Source: an uncultured Nitrososphaerota archaeon (GTDB lineage Archaea > Thermoproteota > Nitrososphaeria > Nitrososphaerales > Nitrosopumilaceae). From it: a stretch of 64,000 nt of DNA. The DNA itself is not shown here. Continued below: a report on this DNA, generated by a model with database tools. The DNA is taken from NCBI GenBank assembly GCA_963701075.1, contig OY969559.1:1088001-1152000 (forward strand), written 5' to 3'.

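Follow-up and report, generated by a model that had tools for sequence, protein, structure and literature searches.

Gene content and setting of the block

The genome analyzed here is a single contig of 1,915,938 bases, and the window (bases 1088001-1152000) contains a block of ~40 kb that is rich in USP and CBS-domain genes. We conclude that this block is probably the core of a regulon, conserved within a family of AOA, that would prepare the cell for a collapse of its energy supply. Directly observed are gene content, clustering, a promoter motif with its spacing, conservation, protein folds and homologies, and we set these out before turning to the proposed mechanism. Positions of the features discussed are collected in the table.

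Pfam scans of the 52 ORFs of the block bear out the gene content listed in a sequence-only reading of this DNA. There are 10 USP genes, one of them split over two frames, and 11 CBS-domain genes including an M50-CBS protease, with one more CBS-domain gene directly beside the block. These are accompanied by two Hsp20 genes and by genes for PPK2, a PNPOx-like protein, a PhaC-like protein and a zinc ADH. A PRTase gene overlaps a dienelactone-hydrolase-like gene, and two small wHTH proteins are 83% identical to each other. Absent from that list were an operon for AMP phosphorylase, an IF-2B-family isomerase and RuBisCO, together with two cupredoxins, two ABC ATPases, APC and MFS transporters, PAC2, an ATP-cone protein with a PD-(D/E)XK-like domain, an ABC-2 permease broken by a frameshift, and several family-less proteins. 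The split USP gene and the frameshifted permease gene are the two broken genes of the block. A reading of the block as a defence island was rejected, since among 10 proteins PADLOC gave one weak match, scored at 20.9 bits, between the ATP-cone protein and a CARF-PD(D/E)XK model. Relatives with 58-61% identity to one of the block's proteins carry the source names Nitrosotalea devaniterrae, N. sinensis and Nitrosotalea sp.; by these names, the placement in Nitrosotalea suggested in the sequence-only reading is a reasonable one.

Positions of the features discussed (window coordinates; for single genes, start coordinate) and, for the stand-alone 4xCBS proteins, their best PDB sequence matches
Feature	Position	Strand	Best PDB sequence match
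USP- and CBS-rich block	17868-57730		
Span of the 52 ORFs scanned with Pfam	17984-57693		
AMP phosphorylase / IF-2B-family isomerase / RuBisCO operon	23299-26963		
USP gene without a box of at least 13 bits	27008		
Predicted HibA/AHA-type protein, 388 aa	29112	+	
Stand-alone 4xCBS protein	34256	-	SriC (9zni_6), E 2.3e-25
Stand-alone 4xCBS protein	43993	+	Two non-ribosomal CBS proteins; SriB third, SriA fourth
Stand-alone 4xCBS protein	46006	-	SriA (9znf_4), E 3.2e-16
Stand-alone 4xCBS protein	56320	+	SriC (9zni_6), E 1.4e-20

Both flanks of the block are core carbon metabolism. To the left lie genes for ketol-acid reductoisomerase, a B12-binding subunit, MeaB, methylmalonyl-CoA mutase and epimerase, and to the right genes for an XRE-HTH-CBS regulator, pyruvate phosphate dikinase, triosephosphate isomerase and a succinyl-CoA ligase subunit. 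The G+C content across the window, in 2-kb bins, is 0.35-0.41, with no step at the edges of the block and similar values in the flanks.

USP and CBS genes are strongly clustered. Six-frame searches of the whole genome gave 20 USP matches in 18 genes, 10 of which are in the block, and 38 CBS matches in 15 genes, 11 of which are in the block. The block amounts to 2.08% of the genome, and the corresponding binomial tail P values are 6e-13 for USP and 4e-16 for CBS. Because tandem duplication inflates such P values, we regard a shared control element as the stronger argument against chance.

A shared promoter box

An inverted repeat was first seen to recur when the 130-nt stretches upstream of the genes were compared, and it is perfect between the PNPOx and cupredoxin genes. 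It defines a 20-bp palindrome with the consensus GATTATCA-N4-TGATAATC, here called the box. In a genome-wide mismatch scan the perfect 20-mer occurs at a single site, this PNPOx/cupredoxin intergene, and three of the seven one-mismatch copies lie in the block. We built a palindromic position matrix from 38 seeds in the block, and block scores are hence partly circular. At a threshold of ≥14 bits the matrix finds 78 sites genome-wide, 26 of them in the block, compared with 19 and 23 in two third-order Markov simulated genomes; at ≥16 bits it finds 33 sites, 17 of them in the block, and the two simulated genomes have 4 and 3. Non-circular support for the box comes from the count of the exact pattern, from the spacing and the sites outside the block, and from conservation across species. 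The exact core TTATCA-N4-TGATAA is present in 8 copies in the genome, five of them outside the block, and its reversed control in none.

The distance from box to start codon is fixed. Of 126 pairs of a site (≥13 bits) and the next ORF, 28 are separated by 38-41 nt, compared with the ~2.7 pairs predicted by an even distribution of gaps across the 190 nt examined. These canonically spaced promoters are divided between the block (17) and the rest of the chromosome (11). Nameable targets outside the block are three USPs, a third wHTH paralogue, a ferritin-like protein, an NADPH-dependent FMN reductase, a 2OG-Fe(II) oxygenase, a cupredoxin, DUF202 and DUF302 proteins and a pentapeptide-repeat protein. 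About a dozen block genes have no box of ≥13 bits, including PPK2, the USP gene at 27008 and both wHTH genes, and none was found either at the ATP-cone gene, the DLH-PRTase operon, the APC permease, M50-CBS and MFS genes or the CBS-RHH pair.

When the promoters are aligned, TTTAAAT starts 10 nt 3' of the box. A TATA-like element thus lies ~22-26 nt 5' of the ATG, with the box at about -59 to -40. The archaeal promoter motif to which the sequence-only reading had tied these genes is therefore present, with fixed spacing to the ATG, a TATA-like box and conservation across species. As judged from this promoter layout, the transcripts are probably leaderless or near-leaderless. Archaeal activators typically act from a position just upstream of BRE/TATA, and the location of the box there suggests an activator-type role for its factor.

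The A+T-rich palindrome could alternatively serve as operator for a repressor that responds to iron or copper, with the USP and CBS genes simply riding along in a regulon of metal or redox homeostasis. Its half-site resembles what we take to be the hexamers of bacterial Fur boxes, and the genes behind the box include three cupredoxins, the ferritin-like protein, the FMN reductase and the 2OG-Fe(II) oxygenase. The only PDB sequence matches of the wHTH protein are to FixK2 and Fur, at non-significant E values of 0.4-0.9. However, the majority of the targets (USPs, CBS proteins, Hsp20, homologues of hibernation factors) have no link to metals, a box upstream of TATA is atypical for a repressor, and the accessible text of PMC12974425 reports N. 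maritimus USP transcripts to be unresponsive to copper stress. We consider this explanation very unlikely.

Conservation of the box and the block

Orthologous promoters were compared in three further species of the genus (genomes G043, G020 and G065), on a single contig in each. The half-sites and a gap of 39-40 nt are kept in these promoters while the 4-nt spacer varies, with the CBS-pair promoter having four different spacers in four species. The block as a whole is also recognizable. In nearly the same order and on one contig, 42 of 48 block proteins match loci in G020 (G020:C26:585-45286) and 43 of 48 match loci in G043 (G043:C25:14304-73736). Median identity to G020 is 72% for 39 block proteins versus 86.5% for 8 flank proteins. 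Other genera of the window's family have blocks that keep the core order and contain many boxes, namely in the genomes G156 and G159 (genus g18), G147 (g25) and G150 (g26). The core common to these genera consists of USP, wHTH, SriC-like, RHH-like and Hsp20 genes; genes for a small protein, Hsp20, PAC2 and a HibA-like protein; and a second SriC-like gene. In G032, which belongs to another family, there is no more than a mini-cluster.

These data bear on whether the block could have arisen by chance tandem duplication of USP and CBS genes that have no common control. Paralogues do often stay adjacent, and clear duplicates are present here in several of the USP pairs and in the two wHTH genes. 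Against such an origin stand the shared box with its fixed spacing, the retention of the box across species while its spacer varies, the conserved gene order across genera, and the presence of ~20 unrelated families in the block; that the box might be just a generic promoter element is disfavoured by the count of 33 sites versus 4. Chance duplication was already disfavoured and is, in our judgement, extremely unlikely.

The chromosomal position of the block differs between genomes. Here it sits between mce (epimerase) and the HTH-CBS-ppdK genes. In G020 and in G013, a further genome of the genus, the epimerase and HTH-CBS-ppdK adjoin without the block, separated by 573 nt and 39 nt respectively, and they are also neighbours in two unpublished genomes, G019 and G011. 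G020 nevertheless has the block, on another contig. A boundary alignment, informative for G000 versus G013 only, places the left break directly after the mce stop codon. Since the block is syntenic within the genus and in other genera, its sequence relationships indicate that it is old and kept together; it is a family feature whose chromosomal site is variable.

A variable site is also what would be expected of mobile cargo, that is, of a decayed integrated element or a block moving as a unit, whose content would be the usual cargo of thaumarchaeal elements and not a host programme. USP, CBS, HTH-CBS, RHH, Zn-ribbon and multicopper oxidase families are among the top 20 cargo families of such elements in the accessible part of PMC6563490, and in this content, copper proteins included, as well as in its variable site the block resembles them. 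Unlike those elements, it has no integrase gene of the XerC/D or Cas1 type in the 52 ORFs scanned, the window contains no tRNA gene as a target, and att repeats were not found, in that no word longer than 8 nt is common to the two boundaries of the block. Its G+C is like that of the flanks, and the same box stands at 11 promoters elsewhere in the chromosome. Synteny in four genera, together with the lower identity to G020 of block than of flank proteins, fits long vertical residence. We therefore find it distinctly unlikely that the block is element cargo.

Beyond the window's family the evidence for the box is sparser. The exact core has 135 copies in the 120 other genomes of the order, compared with 37 for the reversed control (hand sums). 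In a set of 20 regions, drawn from five genomes that represent three families, the box precedes a USP or CBS homologue in five site-gene pairs, in four regions. At HibA-like genes outside the window's family, 11 of 12 loci have no site of ≥12 bits, and there is one weak site of 13.1 bits. Because deep conservation of the box is thin outside the window's family (f1), we claim the regulon for that family only, with hints in family f7. No description of the block or its box was found in the main texts of the literature searched, nor is the block described in the accessible text of the Nitrosotalea literature on USPs.

Homologues of ribosome-hibernation factors

The archaeal ribosome hibernation factors described in papers of 2025-2026 are built on four-CBS modules. 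As presented in the accessible text of these papers, they comprise Dri of Pyrobaculum, SriA-D of Methanosarcina acetivorans, and HibA (also named AHA), which adds an HPF/RaiA domain (PMC13454478, PMC13324472, PMC13728122). Energy limitation raises the Sri genes in M. acetivorans and Sri protects ribosomes (PMC13454478), while AMP is the best-bound ligand of the HibA CBS module (PMC13324472, PMC13728122).

Four genes of the block encode stand-alone 4xCBS proteins of 258-288 aa, each with four CBS stretches in Pfam scans. They resemble the Sri and Dri factors (PMC13454478; PDB 9ZNF, 9ZNG, 9ZNI, 9E6Q) in this architecture, in the clustering of their genes, and in that SriC or SriA is the best solved relative of three of the four (table; Sri chain identities in the PDB entries are from the data-availability passage of PMC13454478). 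They differ from the sriABCD operon in being distributed over 22 kb and both strands, behind separate box promoters. That paper, in its accessible text, sets the SriC homologues of Nitrososphaerales aside as a divergent 'SriC-short' group of uncertain function with shorter, less basic loops.

A fifth protein, the 388-aa product of the gene at 29112, corresponds to the HPF-like factor named in the sequence-only reading, and this assignment has held up. Its AF2 model (pLDDT 83.5) comprises a 4xCBS module and a beta-alpha-beta-beta-beta-alpha domain. Foldseek searches with the whole model returned matches to the CBS module only, to MJ1225, AMPK gamma, SriD and SriA at E about 1e-15 and also to Dri, with no HPF match until the second domain was folded alone. 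The C-terminal 120 residues modeled by themselves (pLDDT 79.8) gave HPF, RaiA and pY on ribosomes as the top Foldseek ranks, with a best E of 5.7e-6 and TM up to 0.68. Pfam HPF (PF02482) has no match in this genome at E ≤ 1, nor in the isolated C-terminal 114 aa. It does match 14 of 121 genomes of the order, five of them above the cut-off. The eight HPF matches whose position was checked all fall in the last ~80 residues of proteins of 366-409 aa, aligned with the C-terminus of the block protein, and six or seven of the HPF-carrying orthologues align with the 388-aa protein over most of its length at 29-43% identity. One homologue record at JGI is titled 'CBS domain-containing protein/ribosome-associated translation inhibitor RaiA'. 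We retain the HPF assignment despite the Pfam miss because of the fold search and the transfer from orthologues, and conclude from the model and these homologues that the 29112 protein is a predicted hibernation factor of the HibA/AHA type.

With HibA/AHA (PMC13324472, PMC13728122) this protein shares an N-terminal 4xCBS module as in AMPK gamma and a C-terminal HPF/RaiA domain. The family is widespread in archaea according to the accessible text of these papers, where a Nitrososphaera viennensis member served as search seed. Two differences stand out: the HPF domain is identified here by fold and orthologue transfer only and not by Pfam HPF, and the gene shares its putative regulon with Sri-like genes, the presence of hibA and sri in one genome being a combination reported as rare (PMC13454478). 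NCBIfam is without a HibA or Sri model, and the CBS proteins of the block give only sub-threshold matches there to unrelated CBS-containing families. By analogy with the solved complexes, the CBS-module proteins of the block may bind ribosomes. The presence of these homologues makes the case for a dormancy-like regulon stronger.

Adenylate and polyphosphate metabolism

A second theme of the block is the handling of adenylates. The nucleotide-binding motif G-2x-G-9/10x-G-S is present in eight of the nine intact USPs. AMP phosphorylase (568 bits versus a cut-off of 535) and type III RuBisCO (576 versus 497) both exceed their NCBIfam equivalog cut-offs, as does the ADP-polyphosphate phosphotransferase. 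The isomerase scores only 181 bits with TIGR00511, which has a cut-off of 314, and reaches the same score with the eIF-2B_rel subfamily; its position between the AMP phosphorylase and RuBisCO genes favours identification as ribose-1,5-bisphosphate isomerase. The PhaC-like protein is below the NCBIfam cut-off. An ATP-cone domain within the block and pyruvate phosphate dikinase next door fit the adenylate theme.

The operon is similar to the archaeal AMP pathway (Sato et al. 2007, as cited in PMC5767755) in having three adjacent genes in pathway order, two of the three being equivalogs, and is dissimilar in that the isomerase falls below its cut-off and the operon is embedded in a putative regulon island. 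The pairing of RuBisCO with AMP phosphorylase was earlier called species-specific to one Nitrosotalea strain, in the accessible text of PMC5767755. We find the DNA of the operon matched in at least 17 of 60 other genomes of the genus.

Candidate regulators

The block and its surroundings offer several candidates for the factor that would bind the box. One is the wHTH family, with two copies in the block (27786 and 55893) and one box-controlled copy outside; this third paralogue, at genome position 490365, is 54% identical and passes Pfam HTH_20. Another is the RHH-like protein (54519), which is 64-89% identical across species and genera and whose gene adjoins a CBS-zinc-ribbon gene (55209). 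The flanking XRE-HTH-CBS protein (57731) is a third. The wHTH and RHH-like genes of other genera lie side by side on the same strand. All wHTH promoters carry a second conserved element, rich in TGCA repeats, just 5' of the TATA box, and in one genome (G177) the wHTH gene has a perfect main box 3' of its TATA box and 5' of its ATG, a placement of the repressor type.

The wHTH family is present in 90 and the RHH-like family in 50 of 121 genomes of the order, with 9 copies of each in this genome. Neither phyletic profile tracks the exact-box counts, which at 1-3 boxes per genome are near noise, and the profiles do not favour one candidate over another. With that limit on the counts, family f12 has the exact box in six of nine genomes and the RHH-like protein in none of nine, and family f4 has the exact box in two of seven and the RHH-like protein in all seven.

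SurR and TrmBL1 of the Thermococcales provide a precedent for this type of control, in which one dimeric factor recognizes an inverted repeat and the effect is set by position relative to BRE/TATA. The box described here differs from those regulons in half-site spacing, phylum and targets.

Comparison with the DosR regulon

The sequence-only reading had likened the block to the DosR dormancy regulon of M. tuberculosis. Members of the DosR regulon include an M50-CBS protease and a fused PRTase-hydrolase, PNPOx-like and HPF-like proteins, an ArsR-type regulator and a synthase for storage lipid. In each case tens of genes stand behind a 20-bp palindrome, although the A+T-rich box is presumably unlike the DosR box in sequence. 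Small heat-shock proteins occur in both. A CBS-pair protein is likewise common to the two, with Rv2626c a PDB match of a CBS pair of the block (1.2e-12), and the tandem-USP protein TB31.7 is a PDB match of a block USP (1.3e-11); the closer PDB relatives are archaeal. The richness in USPs is also shared, with six of the ten USPs of M. tuberculosis under DosR control according to the accessible text of PMC2914252. The block's PRTase has 407 longer relatives at E ≤ 1e-10, and fusion to an alpha/beta hydrolase is frequent among the 120 listed, for example in Actinomycetes, Bdellovibrio and Dehalococcoidia. Such fusions would fit the mycobacterial fused gene named in the sequence-only reading; a M. 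tuberculosis record is not among the 120 listed of the 407.

The regulatory parts are different. GerE has no match above cut-off in the whole genome (best 17.9 bits, in a 68-aa frame) and the genome has no REC+GerE regulator. None of its 16 receiver domains falls within the block (contig positions 1105876-1145708), and Pfam detects no kinase domain among the 52 block ORFs. The promoters of the block are of the archaeal TATA/BRE type, and the block adds AMP metabolism by type III RuBisCO and 4xCBS hibernation-factor homologues. Because the shared protein families are ubiquitous, we conclude that the likeness to DosR is convergence of content and not shared regulatory descent. The parallel thus stands for the protein families and for the arrangement of tens of genes behind a palindrome, and fails for every regulatory feature tested (GerE, receiver, kinase). 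The wider interpretation is partly supported. A regulon with dormancy-like content is retained, hypoxia is at most a candidate cue, the DosR likeness is convergent and the block is conserved in the family instead of being a private island. No paper on an archaeal DosR-like regulon was among those listed in the literature search.

The inducing signal

Expression data from other AOA give some indication of the cue. In two thaumarchaeal symbionts of sponges under hypoxia the few genes that rise are UspA, Hsp20, DnaJ, CBS proteins, two regulators and PII, as reported in the accessible text of bioRxiv 10.1101/2023.02.27.530229. In N. maritimus, UspA, neighbouring CBS proteins and Hsp20 are expressed only or mainly at the highest growth temperature of 32 C, and USP transcripts do not respond to ammonia starvation or copper stress and are absent under peroxide (accessible text of PMC12974425). 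The USP, CBS and Hsp20 classes therefore behave as one stimulon in other AOA. By analogy, the N. maritimus data would argue against substrate starvation as a simple trigger. Any fall in energy charge, whatever its origin, may be what induces these genes, or else the cue may be general stress; energy stress is the cue that we infer for the regulon.

Control by proteotoxic stress of a general or heat type (heat, acid, oxidants), with no specificity for dormancy or for low oxygen and low energy, would account for the N. maritimus pattern of induction at 32 C that is not regulated by ammonia, copper or peroxide (PMC12974425). It would also suit the two Hsp20 and PAC2 proteins of the block, and the ferritin-like protein and FMN reductase among the outside targets fit oxidative stress. 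However, the five hibernation-factor homologues, the AMP-disposal operon and the enzyme that passes polyphosphate to ADP point to energy charge and not to protein damage, and the same gene classes are also induced by hypoxia in the sponge symbionts (bioRxiv 10.1101/2023.02.27.530229). The two readings overlap as well, in that one shutdown programme may have several triggers. We regard an exclusively general stress regulon as unlikely, though it retains a real chance, and continue to favour a programme directed at the collapse of energy supply.

A model for the regulon and its significance

In the programme that we propose, a putative transcription factor would bind GATTATCA-N4-TGATAATC, with the box ending 38-41 nt before the start codon. 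Ribosomes would be parked by one factor of the HibA/AHA type and four Sri-like 4xCBS proteins. The adenylate pool would be sensed and buffered by the nine intact USPs, the CBS pairs and the ATP-cone protein, with AMP drained to 3-phosphoglycerate by AMP phosphorylase, the isomerase and type III RuBisCO, and ATP remade from polyphosphate by the ADP-polyphosphate phosphotransferase. Two Hsp20 proteins and PAC2 would protect proteins, and membrane and stores would be remodelled by the M50-CBS protease, the transporters and the PhaC-like enzyme.

A bolder form of this model, which we offer tentatively and hold to be possible but on balance doubtful, is that the family possesses a master 'hibernation switch'. 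Here a dedicated factor would sense adenylate charge, bind the box and fire ~50 leaderless promoters at once, coupling ribosome parking (HibA and the four Sri-like proteins) to AMP disposal via RuBisCO and to regeneration of ATP from polyphosphate. The best guess for this factor would be the wHTH / RHH-like / CBS-zinc-ribbon module in the block, and the 40-50 kb cassette would be selected to stay together and be relocatable as a unit. If such a switch exists, archaea would have their first defined dormancy programme at the level of a regulon, one that parallels DosR in function but is made from unrelated regulatory parts.

AOA are among the most abundant microbes of soil and sea, and they survive extended spells in which oxygen or substrate is low or conditions are acidic. 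We know of no account of how they shut down and restart. The locus described here offers a defined cis-element, about 28 canonically spaced promoters and a short list of candidate regulators, as well as five candidate ribosome-hibernation factors and a metabolic hypothesis in which AMP removal by type III RuBisCO is combined with polyphosphate-driven phosphorylation of ADP. It would also place the HibA/AHA and Sri factors inside a transcriptional programme, a point that the accessible text of the 2026 structural papers does not address. In studies of nitrification ecology, transcripts of the box genes could mark dormant as opposed to active AOA in metatranscriptomes.

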